Numbered from the stretch's first letter, positions 11,338-33,733 are shown. The stretch is 64,000 nucleotides of DNA from an uncultured Gammaproteobacteria bacterium (GCA_964568925.1 CAZMSJ010000001.1:81907-145906); one strand, 5' to 3'. Notes: generated by a model from the letters alone, not told the origin. Made by a program: numbers and translations.

Positions 11338-11422
11338 TGGCGGAGGGTACAGGGGTCGAACCTGTTAGAGCTTGCGCTCACTAGTTTTCAAGACTAGCGC
11401 ATTACCGTCCTGCCCACCCTCC
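11338..11422 (-). tRNA. tRNA-Ser(UGA)
   Basis: Hand fold: acceptor GGAGGGT/ACCCTCC, anticodon stem CTAGT/ACTAG, loop CTTGAAA, long variable arm, T-loop TTCGACC, G73, and CCA encoded. Confidence 0.85.
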
Positions 11423-11523
11423 GTGGGTTCAATTATACCTGGAAAGGTTCAATTTTACGAATTTTAGTTTGGCAATCAGGACAGAGGGTCATTTTGACTG
11501 TATAATACCGAAGAAAAGAGAGT

Positions 11524-11608
11524 GGAGGCGTAGTCCAGTGGTCCAAGACAATGGTTTGCTAAACCATGACTCGTAAGAGTCTCGCGAGTTCGAATCTCGC
11601 CGCCTCCG
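11524..11608 (+). tRNA. tRNA-Ser(GCU)
   Basis: Hand fold: acceptor GGAGGCG/CGCCTCC, anticodon stem ATGGT/ACCAT, loop TTGCTAA, long variable arm GACTCGTAAGAGTCTC, and G73. Confidence 0.85.
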
Positions 11609-11657
11609 CACGAGTACTTCTTGACTTAATCTTCGGGTTTAATTAGGATTATTTTAA

Positions 11658-12401
11658 ATGGACAGAACTTATTTTGGTGGTACTTTGGGGCGGAGTCGAG
11701 GTGGTCACAATTCTTGGGAAAAAAGAATAGCAGACCCAGTTTATTATCGTAAAATTGGTTGTGTACTTCCGAATGTGTTCAGATATCCAGAACGGAATAA
11801 TCCTTATTTCGCAGAATTTGTTGGCATAGTTCTTGGTGATGGAGGACTAACCAATAGCCAACTTAAAATAACACTCAATCGAGAAAAAGATTTTGAGTAT
11901 GTTTATTATGTTCAATCGCTTATTCATCGATTATTTGGATATCTTCCTTCAGTTCATGAGCGAAAAGATTCATTAGCAACAGTCTTGACTGTTAGTGGAA
12001 TTAATTTTGTCAACTTCTTAAAAGAGTCGGGTTTGTTTGTAGGGAATAAGGTTTGCCAGCAAGTTGGTGTTCCATCTTGGATACAAGAAGATCTTGGGTT
12101 ATCACAATTTTGTATTCGAGGGCTGATGGATACCGATGGGTGTATTTTTGAGAACAGGTATATGTCTCATGGAAGATGGTATATATACAAAAAATTAGCA
12201 TTTTCGAATCGATCAACTCCTTTACTTACATTTTTTAGAAATACTCTTGTTAAAAATGGCTTGCACCCCGTTATGTACCAAAACAAGCAGGTTAGACTCT
12301 GTAGTGAGCGAGAAACGTTGATATATCTTGAAAAGATTGGAAGTTCAAACCCACGAGTAAATCAGTTCAAATCTTGCTATAATAGTGCCACAAGAGTTTA
12401 A
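11658..12401 (+). CDS. LAGLIDADG-family homing endonuclease (double-motif), free-standing
   Basis: Two dodecapeptide motifs are present: FAEFVGIVLGDGGL and IRGLMDTDGCIF. It sits between two tRNA genes with its own TTGACT-17-TAGGAT promoter-like sequence at 11623-11651. Confidence 0.8.
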   Translation: MDRTYFGGTLGRSRGGHNSWEKRIADPVYYRKIGCVLPNVFRYPERNNPYFAEFVGIVLGDGGLTNSQLKITLNREKDFEYVYYVQSLIHRLFGYLPSVHERKDSLATVLTVSGINFVNFLKESGLFVGNKVCQQVGVPSWIQEDLGLSQFCIRGLMDTDGCIFENRYMSHGRWYIYKKLAFSNRSTPLLTFFRNTLVKNGLHPVMYQNKQVRLCSERETLIYLEKIGSSNPRVNQFKSCYNSATRV

Positions 12402-12433
12402 TTCTTTGTGCTTGATTATACTCATTTGTTTCT

Positions 12434-12518
12434 GGAGAAGTCCCATAGTGGCCTAGTGGAGCGGTTTACTAAACCGCCGTATCGAAAGATACCGTGGGTT
12501 CGAATCCCACCTTCTCCG
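12434..12518 (+). tRNA. Class II (Ser-type) tRNA with apparent anticodon ACU
   Basis: Hand fold: acceptor GGAGAAG/CTTCTCC, D-stem CCA/TGG, anticodon stem GCGGT/ACCGC, 7-nt loop TTACTAA (positions 34-36 = ACT), variable arm GTATC-GAAA-GATAC, T-arm GTGGG/CCCAC, and G73. Confidence 0.7.
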
Positions 12519-12572
12519 CACGGATCAACTTCATGATGTGGCCCGAACACTTCGTTTGGGATATAATAGGGA

Positions 12573-13094
12573 ATGCCCGAAGGAGAGAAGACTGAAGAGA
12601 CACCACGAAAAAAGCCAATTCCAGAGGAAAAGCTTTTTAGTTGGGTTGAAAAATCCCGTCCGTTTGAAAGACGTTCCCGTGATTTTTATATTTCTTTGAT
12701 GTCTGTCGCTGTTCTTTTTGGCTTATTGTTCTTTGTTATCGAAGGCCCAATGCCAGTAATCTTACTCGCAGCTCTTGTCTTTTTGTTTTATGTATTAAGT
12801 ACAACGGAGCCAGAGCAGGTTACCTATGAAGTGACAAACAAAGGTATTCGAATGGCTGGACGGCTAACTGAATGGAGTAAGATGGGTCGTTTCTGGTTTA
12901 CCGATCGGTTAAGTCACCGATTATTAATCATTGAAACATCGGTCATTCCAGGAAGACTTGAACTAGTGATTAATAGTGAAATTGAAGGACAGCTTGAAAA
13001 GATTTTGTCTGACTATTTAGTTAATGAGGAAGTGCCCCCAAGTTTCTTTGACAAAGCTGCCAGTTGGGCAAGCATGCGTCTTCCTCAAAAGTAA
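12573..13094 (+). CDS. Membrane protein, function unknown
   Basis: 173-aa ORF with two adjacent TM helices (ISLMSVAVLFGLLFFVIEGPMPVILLAALVFLFYVL). TATAAT at 12562-12567 lies 5 nt upstream of the ATG. Confidence 0.55.
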   Translation: MPEGEKTEETPRKKPIPEEKLFSWVEKSRPFERRSRDFYISLMSVAVLFGLLFFVIEGPMPVILLAALVFLFYVLSTTEPEQVTYEVTNKGIRMAGRLTEWSKMGRFWFTDRLSHRLLIIETSVIPGRLELVINSEIEGQLEKILSDYLVNEEVPPSFFDKAASWASMRLPQK

Positions 13095-13112
13095 TTGTTG
13101 TACAACAAATTT

Positions 13113-13187
13113 GTTCTCGTAGCTCAATGGATAGAGTAGCGGCTTGCGGAGCCGTTGATCCCAGTTCGAATCTGGGCGGGAACACCA
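13113..13187 (+). tRNA. tRNA-Arg(GCG)
   Basis: Hand fold: acceptor GTTCTCG/CGGGAAC, anticodon stem GCGGC/GCCGT, loop TTGCGGA, T-arm CCCAG/CTGGG, A73, and CCA encoded. Confidence 0.8.
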
Positions 13188-13194
13188 TGTGACT

Positions 13195-13278
13195 GGAGGG
13201 TTGTCCGAGCGGTTCAAGGAGCTGGTTTCGAAAACCAGTGGACGCAAGTCCTCACAGGTTCGAATCCTGTACCCTCCG
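13195..13278 (+). tRNA. tRNA-Ser(CGA)
   Basis: Hand fold: acceptor GGAGGGT/ACCCTCC, anticodon stem CTGGT/ACCAG, loop TTCGAAA, long variable arm, and G73. Confidence 0.85.
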
Positions 13279-13363
13279 CAGACACCTCGCCACAAATATT
13301 GACAGTTTTGTTTATAATCCTTCATTAAGAGAAGCAAATTTTTTGCTATAGTGACATTTACGT

Positions 13364-14053
13364 ATGTTTTCAACAATTTTTGAACAAATTATCGTTCTAC
13401 TGAAACAATTTTCTCAAGTGTTGCCACTTCCGTGGTTCACTTTTATTGGAGCGTTTACTGAAGAGGTGATTGCTCCAATCCCTTCACCACTTGTTATGAC
13501 ACTAACTGGGTCTTTAGCTGCTTCGGCAGGTGCTCTTTGGCCATATTTAATTCTCCTTTCGGTCCTCGGTGCTTTAGGAAAAACACTTGGGAGCTATCTT
13601 ATCTATGTAATTGCCGATAAGGCGGAAGATGTTTTGTTAGGACGATTTGGCCGTTTTATTGGGGTATCTCATAAACAAGTAGAGGTAATAGGGAAGCACC
13701 TGAATAAAGGTTGGAAAGATGATGTGGTGATCTTTGTGTTACGTGCCATTCCGATTATCCCAACCGCACCTGTTTCAATCGTTTGTGGCTTAATTAAGTT
13801 AAATCTACGAACCTATTTAGTATCAACCTTTTTAGGTACGGTAGTCCGTAACCTTTTCTATATCTATTTAGGGTTCACTAGTGTCAATGCAATTGAGGCC
13901 ATCAATAATGATATAGATGGAGTTGAAAAATTTGGATATCTTATTCTTCTGGGTTTGCTTGTCGCTGGAGTTGTCTATGTTTTGTACCACAGAAAAAATG
14001 ACACAGGATTAAAGTTTCTTGAAAAGAAACCTACACATACGAAAGAAGAATAA
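13364..14053 (+). CDS. DedA / SNARE-associated (VTT-domain) family membrane protein
   Basis: Multi-TM protein with a DedA-like N-terminal motif (FIGAFTEEVIAPIPSPLVMTLTG) and a family-typical length. Confidence 0.65.
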   Translation: MFSTIFEQIIVLLKQFSQVLPLPWFTFIGAFTEEVIAPIPSPLVMTLTGSLAASAGALWPYLILLSVLGALGKTLGSYLIYVIADKAEDVLLGRFGRFIGVSHKQVEVIGKHLNKGWKDDVVIFVLRAIPIIPTAPVSIVCGLIKLNLRTYLVSTFLGTVVRNLFYIYLGFTSVNAIEAINNDIDGVEKFGYLILLGLLVAGVVYVLYHRKNDTGLKFLEKKPTHTKEE

Positions 14054-14080
14054 GTGTACGTAACCCTTGTGTATACAAAT

Positions 14081-14467
14081 ATGAAAAACCTCAATATCGT
14101 GATATCTCAAACAGTTAAATATATAGAGAAATTTTTAGCAGTGATTGTAATTATCGCTGTGATTTTTTACATTTTGAATAGCTTTGTCTTTTTCGTACAA
14201 GCAGATTGGCAGACAAAAGAAGTGTTTTACGAGCTCATTTATCGCGCATTGTTGGTCACAATTGGGCTAGAGCTCTCACGAATGTTAGTAACCCACAACT
14301 TCATGTCAATATTAGAATTACTAGCCTTTGTCGTTGCAAGAAAAATGCTTAAGCCAGAACTTACTTCTCTTGATGTATTCCTTGGTGTTGTTTCTTTTAC
14401 CGTCATACTAATTGCAAATCGATATCTGGTACTTTCAGATAAAGGGAAGAGTACTGACTCTCTTTAA
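14081..14467 (+). CDS. Four-TM membrane protein, PsiE-like (weak)
   Basis: Size and TM pattern, together with ELSRMLV...LELLAFVVARKML, recall PsiE-family proteins from memory. The ATG at 14081 is preferred over the GTG at 14054. Confidence 0.4.
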   Translation: MKNLNIVISQTVKYIEKFLAVIVIIAVIFYILNSFVFFVQADWQTKEVFYELIYRALLVTIGLELSRMLVTHNFMSILELLAFVVARKMLKPELTSLDVFLGVVSFTVILIANRYLVLSDKGKSTDSL

Positions 14468-14535
14468 GGAGAGAACGAGTATTTATTGTCTAATACCACT
14501 TGTTAACGTAGTGTTTTCTTTTGTAGAATTGCTTC

Positions 14536-14952
14536 ATGGGAATTAATTACACAGCAGTACTTATTGCAACCGTTGCTCAGTTTATTGCAGGTGCTATCTG
14601 GTATGGTCCGCTCTTTGGTCGTTTGTGGGGAAAAATTCATGGCTTTGATAAGCTTCCAAAGGCAGTTCAAGCAAAGATGGTTAAGGAAATGGGTCCTTTT
14701 TATGCCATTCAGTTTGTAGTTACCGTGCTAACTTCACTCGCATTGTTTATTTTGGTTGAACTCCTTCCAGAATTTAGTCCGTTTATGATTGCTCTCCTTA
14801 TTTGGATTGGTTTTGTCGTTCCAGCAAACGTAAGTGCTGTTATTTTTGGAGGAACTGAAGGGAAGTGGGTAACTAAGAAAATAGCTGTTATGGCTGGTGC
14901 AACATTTGTCTGTTTAGTTTCTGGTGCGTTTGTTTTCTCCCTCTTCGCTTAA
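14536..14952 (+). CDS. DUF1761-family membrane protein
   Basis: The N-terminus INYTAVLIATVAQFIAGAIWYGPLFGRLWGK is characteristic of DUF1761, and the protein has four TM helices. Confidence 0.7.
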   Translation: MGINYTAVLIATVAQFIAGAIWYGPLFGRLWGKIHGFDKLPKAVQAKMVKEMGPFYAIQFVVTVLTSLALFILVELLPEFSPFMIALLIWIGFVVPANVSAVIFGGTEGKWVTKKIAVMAGATFVCLVSGAFVFSLFA

Positions 14953-14999
14953 AAAATCCTTACGTAGAGAAAGTTACGTAAATGAGGTATAATATCCCC

Positions 15000-15488
15000 A
15001 TGGCAAAAGAAGAATTGGTAATGGTTTCAGCGGCAGTTGTGTTCAAAAAGCACGACAATGACCCAACAAAGTGGTTTATTATCAGTAACAACGACGAGGA
15101 TGGCTGGGAAATTCCTAAAACCGTTGTCCGCCGTGGAGAGTCTTCAGTTCGTGCTTCAATCCGTATTACAAGTGAACAAGCTGGTATGAGAACTCGTGTT
15201 TTAGAAGAAGTGGGTCGTGGATCTGGTGCAACAAAGCTTAACAATCGACCAGTTACTCAGAAGTTTTTGTACTACCTCATGAATTGTAAAGACGGTGGAG
15301 AAATCATTGGGTTTAACAAATTTGATTGGGTAGAGTACAAAACATTAGTAAAAAGACTCACAAACAAGCGAGATTTGGCTATGGTTGCAAAGGCAAAAGA
15401 TCTCTTGAAAGAACTTGAGCAAAAGAAAGATATTCGTACAGACGAAGAAATCGACGAAATAGAAGAAGACGTGGAAGACATGGTATAA
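15000..15488 (+). CDS. NUDIX-like domain protein with a degenerate Nudix box and an acidic C-terminal tail
   Basis: GESSVRASIRITSEQAGM is only a partial match to GX5EX7REUXEEXGU. TATAAT at 14988-14993 lies 6 nt before the ATG at 15000, so that start is preferred over 14982. Confidence 0.45.
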   Translation: MAKEELVMVSAAVVFKKHDNDPTKWFIISNNDEDGWEIPKTVVRRGESSVRASIRITSEQAGMRTRVLEEVGRGSGATKLNNRPVTQKFLYYLMNCKDGGEIIGFNKFDWVEYKTLVKRLTNKRDLAMVAKAKDLLKELEQKKDIRTDEEIDEIEEDVEDMV

Positions 15489-15492
15489 CCCA

Positions 15493-15578
15493 GGAGGAGT
15501 CGGATAGTGGCCTATTCCACGCGATTGGAAATCGCGGAGCGAAAGCTCTCGTGGGTTCAAATCCCACCTCCTCCGCCA
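15493..15578 (+). tRNA. tRNA-Ser(GGA)
   Basis: Hand fold: acceptor GGAGGAG/CTCCTCC, anticodon stem CGCGA/TCGCG, loop TTGGAAA, long variable arm, T-loop TTCAAAT, G73, and CCA encoded. Confidence 0.85.
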
Positions 15579-26457: not shown

Positions 26458-26486
26458 AGGTCAGGGTAACTCCTGGCCTCTTTTTG
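26458..26486 (+). terminator. Rho-independent terminator
   Basis: AGGTCAGG / CCTGGCCT with one G-U pair, loop GTAACT, then CTTTTTG. Confidence 0.65.
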
Positions 26487-26519
26487 TGGATTAAACTTGA
26501 GGATGTAAGCTCAGAAGGG

Positions 26520-26525
26520 TATAAT
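26520..26525 (+). promoter_or_regulatory. -10 box TATAAT upstream of the split tRNA-Asn
   Basis: GGGTATAAT, with TTGAGG placed 17 nt upstream. The tRNA 5' end at 26550 is 24 nt downstream. Confidence 0.4.
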
Positions 26526-26583
26526 TCCAGTGTACTTTAAATAAAATAATCCCCTGTAGCTCAATGGCAGAGCGGTTCGCTGT

Positions 26584-27103
26584 AGACACTTGCTATTTGG
26601 TATACTTAATTGTGTATGCCAGAGAAGCGAAAATATGCTGATCGCGCCGAGTATATGAAGAAGGCTGTTGCGATGAGACGAAGAAAGCTCAAAGCAATGG
26701 TTGTCGAATATCGAGGCGGGAAATGTATGATTTGTGGTTACAACAAATATTTTGGAGCGCTTGATTTACATCATGTAGATGAGACTCAAAAATCATTTGG
26801 TTTGTCTGTTCGAGGTCTTACTCGTTCTTGGGAAAAGATCAAAGAAGAGGCAGATAAGTGCATTTTATTATGCGCAAATTGTCACCGTGAGATTCATGCC
26901 GGCATTGTGCAGCCTCCAAAAGAAATTTTGGAGTGAACACCAGGCTAATTCGGGGAAGTCCAGGTCTACTGGATAATCCCGAGCTAAATCATCATGAAAA
27001 TGATGTAAATGTGTAGAGACTATATACCTGGGGTCTAAGTTCTAATTTTTTTAGAATATGATCATAAGATAGTCCAAGCCTCACAGTAATGAGAGGGTCC
27101 TTG
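26584..27103 (+). mobile_element. Group I intron (IC3-like core) with an internal HNH ORF
   Basis: The 5' exon ends in U (26583) and the intron ends in G (27103). Hand-folded pairings: P3 26940-44/27027-31; P4 26950-54/26978-82; P5 26959-63/26969-73; P6 26990-95/27000-05 with a GAAA loop; P7 27018-23/27069-74; P8 27040-45/27051-56; P9 27079-83/27090-96. The strings AATTCGGGGAAG and GTAGAGACTA recall the Azoarcus tRNA-Ile intron (from memory). Confidence 0.75.
26616..26936 (+). CDS. HNH homing endonuclease (intron-encoded)
   Basis: CMICGY...LDLHHVDE...LLCANCHREIHAG gives the HNH motif with flanking CxxC pairs. The stop lies 3 nt before intron P3. The ATG at 26616 is preferred over the TTG at 26610. 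Confidence 0.8.
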   Translation: MPEKRKYADRAEYMKKAVAMRRRKLKAMVVEYRGGKCMICGYNKYFGALDLHHVDETQKSFGLSVRGLTRSWEKIKEEADKCILLCANCHREIHAGIVQPPKEILE

Positions 27104-27129
27104 TAACGAAAAGGTTGTAGGTTCGAGTC

Positions 27130-28671
27130 CTACCGGGGGAGCCAGGCATCTGTTATCCGAACCATGTCTCGCCTTATAACAACATCAAAGGCAGGCGTGT
27201 AAGTGATATTGACGATTTTCTTATCTTCAATCCAGATTTTCTCCACAAACCAGCTTAAAAAATCTTTTCTCTCGGTTTCAGTAAATGCTTTGTATAGCTT
27301 TGGTAGTTGTCGCAGAAAGGCAATAATTGTTTCTATCTTCTCTTCATCAAGATTCACAGATGGCTTGTTGAGTTTTGCAATTTCAGCTTCAACTCCTTTG
27401 AGTTCATCTTTCAGAGGAACATACTTTTGTTGAATACGCTCCTGTGGGATAGTTTCAGCAATAATTTGATCTTCTAGCTTATCCATTTTCTTCTCAACAA
27501 TTGTTTTGCGGGCAATCAAAGACTGGATTTTACTAGGAATGTCTTTGCCTTGCTCATGCATATACTCTAGCAATTCAGTTCTTAATGCTTTGAAAAATCT
27601 CTCATCAAAATCAATTGCAGCTATCCAATCCTCAAGTTGTTTATGGATTTTATTCATTGGCGCATAGGGTTGGCTGCATTCCTTGCCTTTGTTCTTGGAG
27701 CCTGTACAGCGATAGTAAAGAAAGATCTTACCATTTTTCTTAATATGTTGCTCTCCAGTCATTAGACTTCCACATTCATTACAAAATACCAACCCTGCCA
27801 AAAAGAAGTTATGTTTTCTCTCGCGATTTGCACCGTTATTGTGTTTTGCTAGTATCTCTTCTGACTTTTTAATATCTCCCATAGTTATAATCGCCCCATG
27901 TTGTCCTTTGTAAATTTTACCGCAATAATACACTTTTCCAGCGTATCTCACATCAGTTAACATCCGATGGATTGCATTTGCTCTAACTCTTTTTCCTTGA
28001 GGGGTGCGAAAGCCCTCCTCGTAAAGCTCATTCTCAAGGGAGTATATCGAGTGACTACCAGTATGGAAACGCCTAAAGACTTCTTTTACAAAATACTCAC
28101 GTTCTTTGTCAATCTTCCAAGGCTCACCCTTTTTGAAAGAGTTGAGATAGCCAATAACTGCCATCCCAGGCTGAAATCCTTTTTCGGCAAGAGCGACCAT
28201 GGTTCTTTTGGTCTTTTCTCCTGTAATTTCTCTTTGAAGTTGATTGGCCCCAGCCATTACTAAATCAACGAATTTTCCTACAGGATCATCTCCGAAATTG
28301 GGTTGTTGAGTGGCAATGAGTTGCACTCCGCATTTCTTAAGAATTGTTTTGACTGCTAAGTGATCTTGTGCATCACGAGCAAAACGATCTGTCTCTTCGA
28401 GAAGTACTGCATCAACATCTTTATCCTTTTGGCAACGCTCAAGCATTCGCATAAACTCAGGTCTGCCTGAAGTACTGCCTCCGCTTTTTCCACCATCCTT
28501 GAAGACTTCCAGAATATGCCAATTTCTTTCTCGAGCAAATTTTACTAAACGATCTACCTGGTCATCTAGTGAATGCCCCTCTTGTACTTGACGATCTGTA
28601 CTTACGCGAGCATAGAGGAGGACATTGCTTATTACTTTTTGTTCATCTTCGATGTTTTGTTTGTATGTCAT
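27130..28671 (-). CDS. Large serine recombinase (integrase)
   Basis: Resolvase catalytic motif LLYARVSTDRQVQEGHSLDDQ, a recombinase domain, a zinc ribbon (CNECGSLMTG...YYRCTGSKNKGKEC), and a C-terminal coiled coil. The last five codons and the stop are encoded by the tRNA acceptor/T-arm sequence. An alternative TTG start lies at 28704. Confidence 0.88.
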   Translation of the reverse strand: MTYKQNIEDEQKVISNVLLYARVSTDRQVQEGHSLDDQVDRLVKFARERNWHILEVFKDGGKSGGSTSGRPEFMRMLERCQKDKDVDAVLLEETDRFARDAQDHLAVKTILKKCGVQLIATQQPNFGDDPVGKFVDLVMAGANQLQREITGEKTKRTMVALAEKGFQPGMAVIGYLNSFKKGEPWKIDKEREYFVKEVFRRFHTGSHSIYSLENELYEEGFRTPQGKRVRANAIHRMLTDVRYAGKVYYCGKIYKGQHGAIITMGDIKKSEEILAKHNNGANRERKHNFFLAGLVFCNECGSLMTGEQHIKKNGKIFLYYRCTGSKNKGKECSQPYAPMNKIHKQLEDWIAAIDFDERFFKALRTELLEYMHEQGKDIPSKIQSLIARKTIVEKKMDKLEDQIIAETIPQERIQQKYVPLKDELKGVEAEIAKLNKPSVNLDEEKIETIIAFLRQLPKLYKAFTETERKDFLSWFVEKIWIEDKKIVNITYTPAFDVVIRRDMVRITDAWLPR

Positions 28672-28798
28672 AAACTTTGAAAGCCGCCTGGTTGAACTCA
28701 ACAAGAATCGCTTCTGTTGTCCAGACGGCCATCAAAAAAAGCGGTTCTTAATGTTGAGTTCATAATTATTCAACCATGTTTTAAGATCGGGTGTCAAA

Positions 28799-31468: not shown

Positions 31469-33733
31469 TTAAGTCATGTTGGGATCAATTCCATATCGCT
31501 TCATTAGTTCTTCAATAGTTTCTGGTTGGATTACATATCTCCAATATCCTTGGACTTTCTTGCCAATAATGCCAAAACGTTTAAGTGCTGCTCCTACACC
31601 ACGGCTGGTGAAGTATTGCTTTTGATCTTCTTCCAGAAATTCACTGGCTCGCTGTTTGATTTCCTTGTTAGTGATATATCCTAGGCTTGAAGTAGAGGTA
31701 AGCTCTCGTAGCGCTAGAAGGACCGCTGCATCAAAGTCCTCCAAATCAGATCCAGAAGTTTCCTGTGCTCTTCGAATAGCTTCTTCTTTAATCTGCTCAA
31801 AAGTTCCTGGCAGGTCTTTATCAAGAAGCTTGGCGATGCAAAGAAGTGGTCTCCAGAGTTCGTTTTGTCTGTTAAGCAATGCATTTACCTCTGGGTCGGA
31901 GTGATAGAAACCTGCGATTTCTTTTGCATAATCCAGTGCAAAGATATAAAGCAGAGAGCGCAAGTACTGCCAGTTTTCTGAACCTTCAGTAACAGCAAGA
32001 TTACCTTTCTCAGGGTTATTGGTTCTGACCATTGTAATAGTGATAGATCTGTCTTCGAGCACATTATCAAGACCTGAGATGTTGGCAATGGCTTTGGGGC
32101 TATAAATTTCAAATGATTCAATTTCAAAGTTACCCTTAGCTCCTTTTTTGACACGATATGCAGGAGCTCCTTGTTTGTATCCAGAATTAAGTAACTCCCG
32201 TAGCTCTTCCTTTTTAGTCTTGTCAGACAACTGCTCACTTTCATCCAATGCCAGCGTGCATCTTTTGGCCTCTACTATGCGAAAGAGTACTGATGGGGAG
32301 ATATTGCTTGAAAGAATTGCATTAAAAGCAAGTTTTTCAATTAAAAGTAAAGTTTTAGTTTTTCCACTTCTTTTTACTCCAACTAAATAGATATAAGGGA
32401 AGGCATCAAAAATTGGAAAAAGATAAGTTCCCATTATCCAAAGAGATAAAATATCGGCATCTGTATCATTTCGGAAATCAACAAACTTAAGAAGAGTCTG
32501 TCTTATTTCAATGAATGCAAGAGTGGAGGGAGAGGAAGTACTGCTCTCAAGAAACTTTCTAATATCTGACACACTCCAGCGGCTTATTTTGCCAGGAATT
32601 TTACTGACCTTTCTGACTGGCAAAATAGTATCCTTTATCGTTATTGTGCCCTTCTCAATAACAGTCTTTTCTTTATTGCTGGTGACAATAACGATTTTTG
32701 TCTTTTCCTTACCATCTATTTTTATTGGAAGAGGATTACCGATAAATAGTTGATCGTTATAGTAATCAAGTGCTGGATGTACGGCTTCTTCTAACTCTGA
32801 TTGAAGGATTTCAAAGTCTTTTGGCTTTATCTCCACAGTTTTTGCTTCGTCAAGCAATTTTTGGAAGTCATCTGGGGTCTTTTTAAGTTTTGCGAAGTAA
32901 TCACTTGTGTCGACTTTGTCATCTCTTTCTTGTGATAAGAGTACAATCTTTGCTCTTTTACCAAAATGTCTTCCTATTGCCTCTGCCCCTTGTTTTCCTG
33001 CATCATCAGTGTCGTAGCAAATGTAAATGGTGTCGATCCCATCAAATTCTGATACCCAGTCCTTTTTGAAAGTCGCAGCACCTGCTGTACCACTGACTGC
33101 TGGGAAACCATTTTGATTGGTAACAATTGCATCAAATTCTCCTTCTGTGATTACAACAAAAGAACTACCATTCTGCTTTACTTCTTCAAGGGTTGCGATA
33201 TTAAATAATGCAGCTTTACCACCTTTTTCATTCCACATTTTGTTGCCATCCTGTTTCTCAGGATCTCTTCTGTGGCGGACATTGATAAGGTTTCCTTCTT
33301 TATCAAATACTGGAATGGTTATACTTTTCCCATCCCAGCCAATTTGGTATTTAGTAATACTTTCATCAGTAATACCGCGTTGGTCTTTGAGGTAAGTTTG
33401 AATTCGCTCAGGTAATTGCTCGTGATATTGAGCTGCAAGGTTTTTATCAAGTTTGGTGGTATTTAACTTGGCTTTGTATTCAATCTTTTGTTTACCCTTT
33501 TTACTTTCAAGAATGGCTTCATCTTTTATGCCAAGGTTGTCAAGTAAATTTTGCCAGCTTCCTTTCATGCCACATTTGTGACACAGATAACAGCCCTCGG
33601 TATTGTGGACATACAAGTGGAATTTGGTGTCCTCACAGAAAGGACAGCAAATAATGGCTTCAGCGCCATCGGTTGAAGTCTTGTATGTTATACTGGTTTT
33701 TGATAGATAGTCTGTAACTGTTTTGTAAATCAT
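31469..33733 (-). CDS. Primase-type replication protein: zinc finger + Toprim + DUF3631-like P-loop domain
   Basis: Zinc ribbon CPFCEDTKFHLYVHNTEGCYLCHKCG; Toprim motifs VVITEGEFDAIV and CYDTDDAGKQGAE; Walker A GVKRSGKT; Walker B TLALDESE. Confidence 0.8.
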   Translation of the reverse strand: MIYKTVTDYLSKTSITYKTSTDGAEAIICCPFCEDTKFHLYVHNTEGCYLCHKCGMKGSWQNLLDNLGIKDEAILESKKGKQKIEYKAKLNTTKLDKNLAAQYHEQLPERIQTYLKDQRGITDESITKYQIGWDGKSITIPVFDKEGNLINVRHRRDPEKQDGNKMWNEKGGKAALFNIATLEEVKQNGSSFVVITEGEFDAIVTNQNGFPAVSGTAGAATFKKDWVSEFDGIDTIYICYDTDDAGKQGAEAIGRHFGKRAKIVLLSQERDDKVDTSDYFAKLKKTPDDFQKLLDEAKTVEIKPKDFEILQSELEEAVHPALDYYNDQLFIGNPLPIKIDGKEKTKIVIVTSNKEKTVIEKGTITIKDTILPVRKVSKIPGKISRWSVSDIRKFLESSTSSPSTLAFIEIRQTLLKFVDFRNDTDADILSLWIMGTYLFPIFDAFPYIYLVGVKRSGKTKTLLLIEKLAFNAILSSNISPSVLFRIVEAKRCTLALDESEQLSDKTKKEELRELLNSGYKQGAPAYRVKKGAKGNFEIESFEIYSPKAIANISGLDNVLEDRSITITMVRTNNPEKGNLAVTEGSENWQYLRSLLYIFALDYAKEIAGFYHSDPEVNALLNRQNELWRPLLCIAKLLDKDLPGTFEQIKEEAIRRAQETSGSDLEDFDAAVLLALRELTSTSSLGYITNKEIKQRASEFLEEDQKQYFTSRGVGAALKRFGIIGKKVQGYWRYVIQPETIEELMKRYGIDPNMT

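Follow-up and report, generated by a model that had tools for sequence, protein, structure and literature searches.

A group I intron with an HNH endonuclease gene at position 35/36 of a Candidatus Woesebacteria tRNA-Asn(GUU) gene

The tFind survey of Williams (2020; bioRxiv 10.1101/2020.01.27.920355) raised the number of tRNA-intron types from the four classical ones to 21; it is a purely computational catalogue, in which ORFs are treated no further than in a remark that introns longer than ~400 bp may contain genes. One of its classes, Asn.4Ug, comprises, as cited in PMC13011429, tRNA-Asn introns that lie after the fourth anticodon-loop base, follow U(-1), and end in g. [quoted passage not shown] (mSystems 2026; PMC13011429; preprint 10.1101/2025.07.03.662931); four of these introns carry HNH genes, and those of the class that are >500 nt encode HNH (PF01844). 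In the same work, ORF-less relatives were spliced in vitro at 35/36 and their products sequenced, the tRNA-Asp 35/36 intron of GCA_001029755.1 self-spliced precisely in vitro, nearly all Patescibacteria tRNA introns were placed in subgroup IA and none in IC, and an ambiguity between Thr and Asn in the placement of the boundaries was described.

Here we analysed a locus of this kind within a 64-kb stretch of DNA (hereafter the window, meaning the whole stretch that was analysed). The host is Candidatus Woesebacteria (Patescibacteria): the SmpB protein of the window is identical to that of a Candidatus Woesebacteria bacterium (MBP7119188.1), the window carries bacterial housekeeping genes (SmpB with tmRNA, DnaG with sigma-70), and nearly all relatives of the HNH protein come from Patescibacteria genomes. 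Contigs identical to it are also present in the sequencing runs SRR13287411, SRR13287419, and SRR13287453. The best overall explanation of the locus, and in our judgement a very probable one, is a Woesebacteria tRNA-Asn(GUU) gene with a mobile 520-nt group I intron at 35/36. A first reading made without database searches (hereafter the sequence-only reading) had regarded an Asn(GUU) host gene, an insertion at 35/36, and an HNH ORF as unusual. This appraisal does not stand, as the class is already in Nakagawa et al. and the catalogue of Williams holds 21 types; the arrangement is known for Patescibacteria from work of 2020-2026, and the window copy is nothing new in kind. The gene and its intron are laid out as follows.

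26497..26525 (+): promoter-like TTGAGG-17-TATAAT, 24 nt 5' of the tRNA (consensus scan, 10/12; putative function)
26550..26583 (+): tRNA-Asn 5' exon, positions 1-35, ending C32 U33 G34 U35 (ARAGORN on the spliced sequence; matches the 5' part of the intron-less allele L179 exactly)
26584..27103 (+): group I intron, 520 nt, starting right behind U(-1) and ending with the omega G 27103 (RF00028; boundaries by L179)
27104..27144 (+): tRNA-Asn 3' exon, positions 36-76, with G73 and encoded CCA (ARAGORN; uninterrupted L179 allele)

When 26550-26583 and 27104-27144 were joined in silico, ARAGORN called a 75-nt tRNA-Asn(gtt) with a canonical cloverleaf, GUU anticodon, U1-A72 pair, G73, and encoded CCA; at the exon junction of this spliced product CUGU meets UAA (flanking letters GGTTCGCTGT and TAACGAAAAG), which gives the anticodon loop CUGUUAA. 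The natural counterpart of this product is found on a metagenome contig (L179) that is syntenic with the window, with a sigma-70 protein 93% identical and with DnaG and a 150-aa ORF conserved. Its uninterrupted tRNA-Asn is identical to the spliced window tRNA at 75/75 positions and has the same uninterrupted loop, CUGUUAA, and the similarity between window and contig breaks exactly at 26583 and restarts at 27104. The intron boundaries are thereby fixed independently by an intron-less allele. The sequence-only reading had proposed a tRNA-Asn(GUU) with halves 520 nt apart, U1-A72, and G73, which the ARAGORN call and the identity with L179 confirm, and its insertion point between positions 35 and 36 coincides with the breakpoints against this allele. 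L179 keeps the whole tRNA, the promoter region, and ~90 nt downstream beside DnaG and sigma-70, including the -35 and -10 of the promoter-like site, which in the window is preceded by a terminator-like hairpin at 26458-26479. A G27-A43 mismatch in the anticodon stem of the spliced tRNA (ARAGORN) is present in the L179 allele too, and 17 other full-length metagenomic tRNA-Asn with the same anticodon arm are identical to the spliced tRNA at 59-68 of 75 positions. Window and L179 are thus a matched intron-plus/intron-minus pair, syntenic and with identical exons, and provide material for testing homing by the HNH protein.

When introns were permitted, ARAGORN placed the 3' site in the raw region after 27086 and returned a 92-nt tRNA; this placement was rejected for 27103/27104, since there the intron ends in G, the cloverleaf has 75 nt, and the boundary agrees with the L179 allele. 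With default settings, ARAGORN called no tRNA at the locus. The genome, searched with a default tRNA finder, would therefore seem to be without tRNA-Asn, which affects completeness estimates for Patescibacteria, an effect that has already been raised (PMC13011429).

The helices of the ribozyme and the ORF within it were placed as follows.

26579..26584 (+): P1 5' strand, exon GCUGU plus intron A(+1); pairs with 26908-26913, with a U26583-G26909 wobble at the splice site
26598..26606 (+): TGGTATACT, extended -10-like element 9 nt 5' of the ORF ATG (TGnTAYAHT conservation; putative function)
26616..26936 (+): HNH endonuclease ORF, 106 aa plus stop, in the P1 loop (ORF list; Pfam; homologues; AlphaFold2)
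26905..26907 (+): candidate P10 strand UUG, which could pair with 3' exon UAA 27104-27106 (U-G, A-U, A-U)
26908..26913 (+): P1 3' strand, internal guide sequence U-GCAGC (GCAG invariant in 60/60 homologues, at the same place)
26914..26933 (+): P2 hairpin, 8 bp, GAAA loop, within the last 7 ORF codons (covariation)
26940..26944 (+): P3 5' strand CCAGG, pairs with 27027-27031 (88.6% paired, 16 pair types; Rfam alignment)
26950..26982 (+): P4 (26950-26955/26977-26982) enclosing P5 (26959-26973) (P4 98.3% paired, 14 pair types; Rfam alignment)
26983..27012 (+): P6 (26983-84/27011-12) and P6a (26989-27005) with GAAA loop (P6, covariation; P6a, sequence and MFE fold)
27018..27023 (+): P7 5' strand GACUAU, pairs with 27069-27074 (5/6 pairs invariant in 60 homologues)
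27027..27031 (+): P3 3' strand CCUGG, 3 nt from P7
27032..27063 (+): P8 hairpin (MFE fold of an ORF-deleted construct; Rfam alignment)
27069..27074 (+): P7 3' strand AUAGUC (pairing with 27018-27023)
27079..27096 (+): P9 hairpin (Rfam alignment; MFE fold)

A cmsearch with RF00028 (Intron_gpI) matched 26885-27096(+) over the full model length with 64.1 bits, above the gathering score of 50, and with E=6e-14 for the scan of the whole 64-kb window. U26583 ends the 5' exon and G27103 ends the insert, just as had been proposed from the sequence, and the hand-folded P3-P9 core is recovered by the Rfam match, with P7 GACTAT/ATAGTC unchanged and the GAAA cap placed on P6a; P1 with its guide and P2, which had been left unplaced, are now located at 26909-26913 (guide) and 26914-26933 (P2). 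The likeness to the Azoarcus intron named in that reading holds for shared core strings, but it is limited to the universally conserved core, and of the Patescibacteria tRNA introns nearly all were placed in IA and none in IC (PMC13011429). A match of Rfam Ref68 inside the ORF was dismissed as chance (16.6 bits against a cut-off of 44).

The same architecture was found in 59 of 80 species-representative genome loci, and 8 more are alike but cut by a contig end. Covariation counts took in P1, P2, P3, P4, P6, and P7, while P5, P6a, P8, and P9 were left out since the MAFFT alignment is unreliable there. P1, P2, P3, P4, and P6 were 89-99% paired, with 4-28 pair types (P2, P3, P4, and P6), and exceeded slid and shuffled controls; the inner six pairs of P2 showed 28 pair types in 60 homologues and were 96.9% paired, compared with a shuffle mean of 62%, and P6 was 99.2% paired across the 60 with GC/GU and CG/GC exchanges. 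The guide GCAGC (26909-26913) sits 325 nt downstream of the 5' splice site, within the 3' end of the ORF. Its pairing with the exon (CUGU with GCAG) is invariant in the 60 homologues, and the pair between intron +1 and the base preceding the guide covaries (GC 40, AU 14, and UA 3 of 60; 95% paired versus 69% when shuffled). No covariation of tRNA position 31 with the guide was found, the guide remaining GCAGC even where position 31 is C or A, and P1 therefore has four or five exon pairs. Covariation in support of P10 was likewise not found in these homologues, where its middle pair is kept in 23/60 and the exon side never varies. The invariance of P7 is uninformative for covariation, but is expected of the guanosine-binding helix. 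As just 3 nt separate the P3 3' strand from P7, the window intron has no P7.1/P7.2; about two thirds of the homologues have an insertion of 30-60 nt between P7 and the P3 3' strand, which the window intron is without. Support for reading the gene as a tRNA-Asn(GUU) with an HNH-bearing group I intron between 35 and 36 comes from the score against Rfam, adherence to the splice-site rules, the L179 allele, the 59 homologous loci, and the in vitro splicing published for close relatives.

Because the P1 guide lies 325 nt downstream and P2 occupies 26914-26933, the ORF fills the P1 loop. It reads through the guide sequence and P2, so that its last ~10 codons double as both, and its TGA stop (26934-26936) lies 3 nt before P3 (26940-26944), in agreement with the sequence-only reading, whose HNH assignment is upheld by the 106-aa ORF and its invariant HNH residues. 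The motif order is CxxC...HH...CxxCH...H, and C37, C40, H52, H53, C86, N88, C89, H90, and H94, among them the catalytic His, Asn, and His and the zinc ligands of two CxxC pairs, do not vary among 28 homologues. In HMM searches against HNH families the window protein scored 20.0 bits (E=8e-4) with Pfam HNH PF01844, 1.4 below the cut-off of 21.4, and an NCBIfam search gave no match. PF01844 was matched at E<=0.01 by 12 of the 28 close homologues (best 3.3e-5). A single-sequence PDB search, which was stronger than the profile search, aligned the nuclease domain of E. coli McrA (6ghc) with the HNH motifs at E=1.2e-4. The AlphaFold2 model (pLDDT 82.6) has a strand-strand-helix arrangement around the HNH motifs, and all recognised folds among the 50 Foldseek PDB matches listed were HNH-type (Cap5, Cas9 HNH, T4 endonuclease VII, Gme HNH), with a top E-value of 0.08 (probability 0.96) and none <=0.001 among these matches.

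The ORF belongs to a large family (1374 homologous clusters), in which, at a protein identity of ~75%, synonymous sites are probably saturated. The tail after the catalytic motif reads (I/V)(T/V)Q(L/P)P in intronic copies only and differs in free-standing ones; the protein tail is therefore dictated by the RNA. TGnTAYAHT precedes the HNH start in 42 of 81 loci, intronic ones as well as free-standing ones, and in 27 of the 42 the spacing from its end to the ATG is exactly 9 nt. Judging from this conservation, TGGTATACT may act as a promoter inside the intron, giving an endonuclease mRNA with almost no leader.

Relatives of the HNH protein keep close company with tRNA-Asn. In all 80 genome loci the HNH gene lies within a tRNA-Asn gene or immediately 5' or 3' of one, and on phage contigs a tRNA-Asn is within 400 nt of it in 41 of 59 loci, Asn making up 10% of the tRNAs there. 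Three arrangements were seen: HNH genes free-standing by an intron-less tRNA-Asn (L007, L029, and phage tRNA arrays), free-standing by a tRNA-Asn with a short ORF-less intron at the presumed target site (L005, L009, L011, L014, L019, L025, L054, L062, and L067), and embedded in the P1 loop with the 3' end fused to guide and P2 (the window copy and those of at least 59 other species). It is possible, if somewhat less than probable, that the lineage is a homing endonuclease dedicated to tRNA-Asn and common to phages and Patescibacteria, whose loci appear to keep every stage of the assembly of ORF and intron. If true, published counts of "endonuclease-less" tRNA introns underrate mobility, and a common CUGU target of the guide would explain the 35/36 introns in Asn, Asp, and Tyr tRNAs.

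The occurrence of free-standing HNH relatives beside tRNA-Asn in Patescibacteria and in phage tRNA clusters may itself be new; it bears on the assembly of mobile introns and on gene flow between bacteria and phages, and could merit a separate study. A blastn search against phage records gave just two short matches, both within the HNH core. The annotated one, Escherichia phage WPEC5, was set aside, as its 180-aa HNH adjoins tRNA-Met and tRNA-Ser and not tRNA-Asn.

Based on these features, we propose the following course of splicing and homing. The tRNA gene would be transcribed from its own promoter-like site, and P1 would form between the exon end G31 C32 U33 G34 U35, extended by the intron's first base, and the guide U-GCAGC, 325 nt downstream. 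Exogenous guanosine would then attack after U35, held in the U-G wobble, whereupon G27103 would occupy the guanosine site and the exons would be ligated into a normal 75-nt tRNA-Asn. A ribosome on the ORF and the folded ribozyme should be mutually exclusive on one RNA molecule, because the last ~10 ORF codons double as guide sequence and P2. The conserved -10-like element 9 nt before the ATG suggests that the endonuclease is made from a separate, nearly leaderless transcript. The most likely targets of the predicted enzyme are tRNA-Asn genes without the intron, which it would cut or nick close to the anticodon, and repair off the intron-containing copy would spread the intron together with its ORF.

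Several other explanations have to be weighed against a functional, mobile intron. The intron could be a dead relic and the locus a tRNA pseudogene, with Asn decoding left to an intact gene outside the window; the view spans 64 kb of the genome, and some homologous loci are visibly decayed (L049 lacks the 3' part of the ribozyme and the exon, and the ORFs of L016 and L028 are truncated). We consider this highly improbable, as the core helices, U(-1), terminal G, guide, and ORF are all intact in the window, the promoter-like site 5' of the gene is conserved in L179, and no second tRNA-Asn was found in the 64-kb window. Boundaries two bases off would turn the gene into a tRNA-Thr(UGU) with an intron at 33/34. 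Such a shift has next to no probability here: the shifted intron would end in U and not G, ARAGORN calls Asn for the window, the uninterrupted L179 allele reads CUGUUAA, and sequenced in vitro products of homologues show 35/36 (PMC13011429), even though ARAGORN with introns reports ~30 related genome loci as Thr(tgt), the intron being placed at 33 or 34, and both ARAGORN and tFind often call homologues so, an ambiguity noted by Nakagawa et al. (PMC13011429).

The remaining two concern the ORF and the neighbourhood. With 35 invariant residues and 60-80% identity between copies from several Patescibacteria classes, the protein is conserved to an unusual degree for a selfish endonuclease, and its sequence matches extend to a group II intron maturase, in the HNH domain; the HNH protein might thus not, or no longer, be a homing endonuclease and instead aid splicing, act on RNA, or serve a host or defence function. 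The invariance of its catalytic and zinc-binding residues, the linkage to tRNA-Asn in 80/80 genome loci and 41/59 phage loci, which is the pattern of DNA-targeting homing, and the varying presence of the intron between species with identical exons (window versus L179) make this unlikely. It is decidedly unlikely, too, that tRNA and intron belong to, or were rebuilt by, a neighbouring integrative element, for the whole tRNA, the promoter region, and ~90 nt downstream are conserved in the chromosomal context of L179, and no second copy of the tRNA 3' end (attachment-site repeat) was found in the window. What speaks for this reading is the element's large serine recombinase ORF at 27130-28704(-), which overlaps the tRNA 3' end by 15 nt, and the position of recombinase homologues directly 3' of tRNA-Asn in 14 of 80 related loci; it would in any case touch the origin of the 3' exon alone, not the nature of the intron.

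Read as a tRNA-Asn(GUU) gene with a mobile group I intron, the locus can be set beside the known systems. The classical bacterial tRNA introns (Leu(UAA) 34/35, fMet 33/34, Arg(CCU) 36/37, and Azoarcus Ile(CAU) 36/37; all IC3 and mostly ORF-less) are self-splicing group I introns, as the window intron is predicted to be, and resemble it in lying in the anticodon loop and in their J3/4-P4 and J6/7-P7 strings (AATTCGGGGAAG, GTAGAGACTA), but differ in host tRNA and in insertion point; their IC3 subgroup stands against the IA published for nearly all Patescibacteria tRNA introns. T4 SegB (PMC2330249), a free-standing homing endonuclease in a phage tRNA cluster, is a GIY-YIG enzyme, whereas the window lineage is HNH. 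Some relatives of the window protein are, like SegB, free-standing by phage tRNA genes, while in the window the gene is inside the intron. "Collaborative homing", in which a free-standing endonuclease acts with an ORF-less intron, has reportedly been described by Bonocora and Shub and by Zeng et al. The placement of HNH relatives by tRNA-Asn, whether or not the latter has an ORF-less intron, bears a likeness to it both in Patescibacteria and in phage arrays. Studies of collaborative homing are named in a review (PMC3984707).

The closest likeness is to the class of Nakagawa et al., with which the window intron shares phylum, host gene, 35/36 site, U(-1), terminal G, and HNH family. One homologous locus of our set (L039, CP011213.1) is the 568-nt tRNA-Asn intron of GCA_001029735.1 in their supplementary table, and its HNH is 70% identical to that of the window; their intron of GCA_023898525.1 encodes the same HNH family. 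The window copy, from a Woesebacteria draft genome, is not among the introns of their 95 complete genomes. In its ribozyme part it shares 77% identity (138/179 aligned positions, with identical core strings) with their Microgenomatia tRNA-Asp intron of GCA_001029755.1, more than with their Saccharimonadia tRNA-Asn intron (67%), and it is without the P7.1/P7.2-like insertion. Nakagawa et al. describe neither the placement of the ORF within the P1 loop nor free-standing HNH copies, and whereas the published in vitro tests concern ORF-less introns, the window intron has a P1 loop of 325 nt.

The segments 26550-26583 and 27104-27144, which the sequence-only reading had taken for the two halves of a split gene, together form 75 nt, and ARAGORN folds these into a tRNA-Asn(gtt) whose anticodon loop is CUGUUAA; U1 pairs with A72, the discriminator base is G73, and the CCA is encoded. 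The one irregularity is that G27 and A43, which top the anticodon stem, are mismatched. When the whole window was scanned with default ARAGORN, no tRNA was found near 26550, and a tmRNA and seven tRNAs were called elsewhere. The proposed junction follows the group I rule, as U26583 is the last base of the 5' exon and G27103 the last base of the insert. The group I core, previously folded by hand, was recovered by Rfam Intron_gpI at 26885-27096 on the plus strand (64.1 bits versus a gathering score of 50; E = 6e-14 over the whole window; full model length covered), and the individual helices were borne out: P6a has its GAAA cap, P7 is GACTAT / ATAGTC, and P3 begins 3 nt past the stop codon.

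A scan with the spliced anticodon arm yielded 21 uninterrupted tRNA-Asn genes in metagenome contigs, including that of L179, a syntenic metagenome locus, where 75 of 75 positions are identical to the in-silico spliced window tRNA. The gene neighborhood of L179 is that of the window (sigma-70 protein 93% identical; DnaG and a 150-aa ORF conserved), and the tRNA promoter regions are ~86% identical. Similarity between the two loci ends at 26583 and restarts at 27104, which sets the insert at exactly 26584-27103. A related species has an empty-site allele with identical exons. From its sequence and position, we infer a tRNA promoter role for TTGAGG-17-TATAAT, a promoter-like site 24 nt 5' of the tRNA and downstream of a terminator-like hairpin, which is conserved in L179.

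The intron anatomy is complete, with the P1 guide sequence (IGS) and P2, both initially left unplaced, now assigned as follows:

26909-26913, plus strand: P1 guide sequence GCAGC, pairing with exon G31-C32-U33-G34-U35 (26579-26583)
26914-26933, plus strand: P2, 8 bp with a GAAA loop

These assignments were compared across 60 non-identical homologous introns. All 60 contain an invariant GCAG(C/U), 310-354 nt into the intron and shortly 3' of the endonuclease catalytic motif, followed in order by a hairpin, UGAAAA and P3. Within P1, the splice-site wobble is U26583-G26909, and the adjacent pair, between intron base 1 and the base before the guide sequence, covaries (G-C in 40/60, A-U in 14/60, U-A in 3/60), with 95% paired; column shuffling gives 69%, and sliding the partner by one base gives 5-17%. 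The inner six pairs of P2 are 96.9% paired with 28 pair types; P3, P4, and P6 are 88.6%, 98.3%, and 99.2% paired, respectively, with several pair types in each, and P7 is invariant. For P10, three pairs are possible in the window (26905-26907 with 27104-27106), and support for them was sought in the 60 introns and not found. P7 and P3' are only 3 nt apart in the window core, a spacing that in about two thirds of homologues is 30-60 nt longer, the added sequence resembling P7.1/P7.2.

Given the P1 and P2 assignments, the ORF fills the P1 loop, continues through the guide sequence and P2, and stops in J2/3. Past the catalytic motif, intronic copies of the protein share the tail (I/V)(T/V)Q(L/P)P and free-standing copies (HNH genes outside any intron) differ, so this part of the protein is dictated by the RNA. 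Within the intron, the extended -10-like TGGTATACT (26598-26606) ends 9 nt 5' of the ATG; in 42 of 81 loci, intronic and free-standing alike, the HNH start has such a motif upstream, and no Shine-Dalgarno-like sequence was evident by eye. These features suggest an internal promoter giving the endonuclease a transcript of its own, nearly leaderless. Such a transcript would fit the overlap of the ORF with P1 and P2, since an RNA molecule under translation could not at the same time fold as a ribozyme.

The ORF product was accepted on motif grounds as a putative HNH nuclease, as originally read. The window protein scores 20.0 bits against Pfam HNH, 1.4 under the cut-off, and 12 of 28 homologues match HNH at E<=0.01; C37, C40, H52, H53, C86, N88, C89, H90, and H94 are invariant. 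The best solved-structure match is the E. coli McrA nuclease domain (E=1.2e-4), and in an AlphaFold2 model (pLDDT 82.6) the strand-strand-helix unit comes after a long N-terminal helix. Of the 50 PDB entries that Foldseek listed, none is a statistically strong match, and those recognized are all HNH-type nucleases.

Housekeeping genes in the window (SmpB beside the tmRNA; DnaG then a sigma-70 factor; a SpoIID-domain protein) place the locus on a bacterial chromosome. The window SmpB is identical to MBP7119188.1, labelled Candidatus Woesebacteria bacterium, and contigs of up to 147 kb encode the exact HNH protein, as do three Logan assemblies carrying the same locus. Other features of the window include:

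27130-28704, minus strand: large serine recombinase, 524 aa, with Resolvase, Recombinase and zinc-ribbon domains
31469-33733: Toprim primase-like gene, behind the recombinase among unknown ORFs, in a region reaching ~36800
11658-12401: 247-aa ORF with LAGLIDADG endonuclease domains, between tRNA-Ser(GCT) and tRNA-Ser(ACT)

The recombinase gene ends 15 nt within the tRNA-Asn 3' end and, together with the unknown ORFs and the Toprim primase-like gene, raises the possibility that the region from 27130 to ~36800 may be an integrated element. A search of the window for a repeated tRNA 3' end found none. Diverse recombinase homologues (23-30% identity) lie just 3' of tRNA-Asn on the opposite strand in 14 of the best 80 of 345 genome matches to the HNH ORF. 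Elsewhere (11338-15578), five tRNA-Ser genes (TGA, GCT, ACT, CGA, GGA) are found in ~4 kb together with a tRNA-Arg(GCG), and two of these anticodons, ACT and GCG, are uncommon in bacteria. By its domains, the LAGLIDADG ORF is a putative second tRNA-adjacent homing endonuclease in the window.

Homologues of the HNH ORF formed 1374 clusters at 90% identity, and 345 matches were in species-representative genomes. The best 80 of these 345 are 60-80% identical and nearly all from Patescibacteria, of many classes. In 59 of the 80, the same arrangement of a tRNA-Asn(GUU) split at 35/36 was rebuilt (intron 499-712 nt; ORF start, with few exceptions, 17-49 nt from the 5' end of the intron), and in 8 further loci it is interrupted by a contig end. 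Many related loci were called by ARAGORN as tRNA-Thr(UGU) interrupted at 33/34, a mis-annotation already described in the literature. Truncated ORFs occur in two loci (L016 and L028). In another, a Candidatus Berkelbacteria contig (L049, ~760-1330), the HNH copy is intronic but its ribozyme and 3' exon are incomplete: the former lacks its 3' portion and the latter its 5' portion, and P8 is fused to the T arm. This reflects either decay into a pseudogene or misassembly.

The HNH gene lies outside an intron in the remaining 12 of the 80 genome loci, ~30-150 nt from a tRNA-Asn gene:

L005, L009, L011, L014, L054, L062, L067: HNH 30-110 nt upstream of a tRNA-Asn with a short ORF-less 35/36 intron
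L019, L025: HNH downstream of such a tRNA-Asn
L007, L029: HNH beside an intron-less tRNA-Asn
L032: HNH 3' of an apparent tRNA 3' end

Viral contigs hold 262 relatives (50-63% identity), and phage tRNA gene arrays house them in IMG/VR (L084-L163). Of 59 non-identical viral loci, 34 have tRNA-Asn as the tRNA closest to HNH and 41 have a tRNA-Asn(GTT) <=400 nt from it, with Asn making up 10% of the tRNAs there; most commonly, both genes lie on one strand, the HNH ending 15 nt 5' of the tRNA. In two viral contigs (L084 and L094), HNH appears to be intron-embedded. The 381-kb genome of Escherichia phage WPEC5 (L185, PV654397.1) has an annotated 180-aa HNH endonuclease (86523-87065) that adjoins tRNA-Met and tRNA-Ser genes and has a 79-nt stretch in common with the window ORF (77% identity). 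Collaborative homing is a route to mobile introns, which the pairing of free-standing HNH genes with tRNA-Asn resembles; the phrase appears in a review (PMC3984707). Nakagawa et al. (mSystems 2026, PMC13011429; preprint July 2025) concluded that most tRNA introns are without endonucleases and made no mention of free-standing copies; with such copies beside ORF-less introns, some "endonuclease-less" introns may be mobile yet not counted as such.

In the 95 complete Patescibacteria genomes analyzed in that study, group I introns at 35/36 were reported in 15 tRNA-Asn(GUU) and 3 tRNA-Asp(GUC) genes, with HNH (PF01844) endonucleases encoded by four of the tRNA-Asn introns; one Asn and one Asp intron self-spliced precisely in vitro, with a terminal G-to-C change as negative control (PMC13011429). 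The tRNA-intron types had been raised from four classical ones to 21 by Williams (2020), whose class Asn.4Ug is cited by Nakagawa et al. The sequence-only reading was right in observation and interpretation. Its view of the Asn(GUU) host, the 35/36 insertion, and the HNH ORF as unusual does not hold, as all three define this class: the window element is an ordinary member of it. For the window copy, we infer splicing, the internal promoter, and endonuclease activity. In CP011213.1 (L039), exon and intron start are identical to the published 568-nt intron of GCA_001029735.1 (supplementary table of PMC13011429), and the HNH is 70% identical to that of the window; the published GCA_023898525.1 intron also codes for this protein family. 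The guide sequence GCAG pairs solely with C32-U33-G34-U35, common to Asn, Asp, and Tyr tRNAs, which may explain the restriction of 35/36 introns to these three. At 196 nt, the ribozyme part of the window intron (26908-27103) equals in length the spliced Microgenomatia tRNA-Asp intron (GCA_001029755.1), and the two are 77% identical; its identity to the spliced Saccharimonadia tRNA-Asn intron of Nakagawa et al. is 67%. It is thus nearer to an intron of another tRNA, with which it shares identical J3/4-P4, P4'-P6, J6/7-P7-P3', and J8/7-P7' strings.
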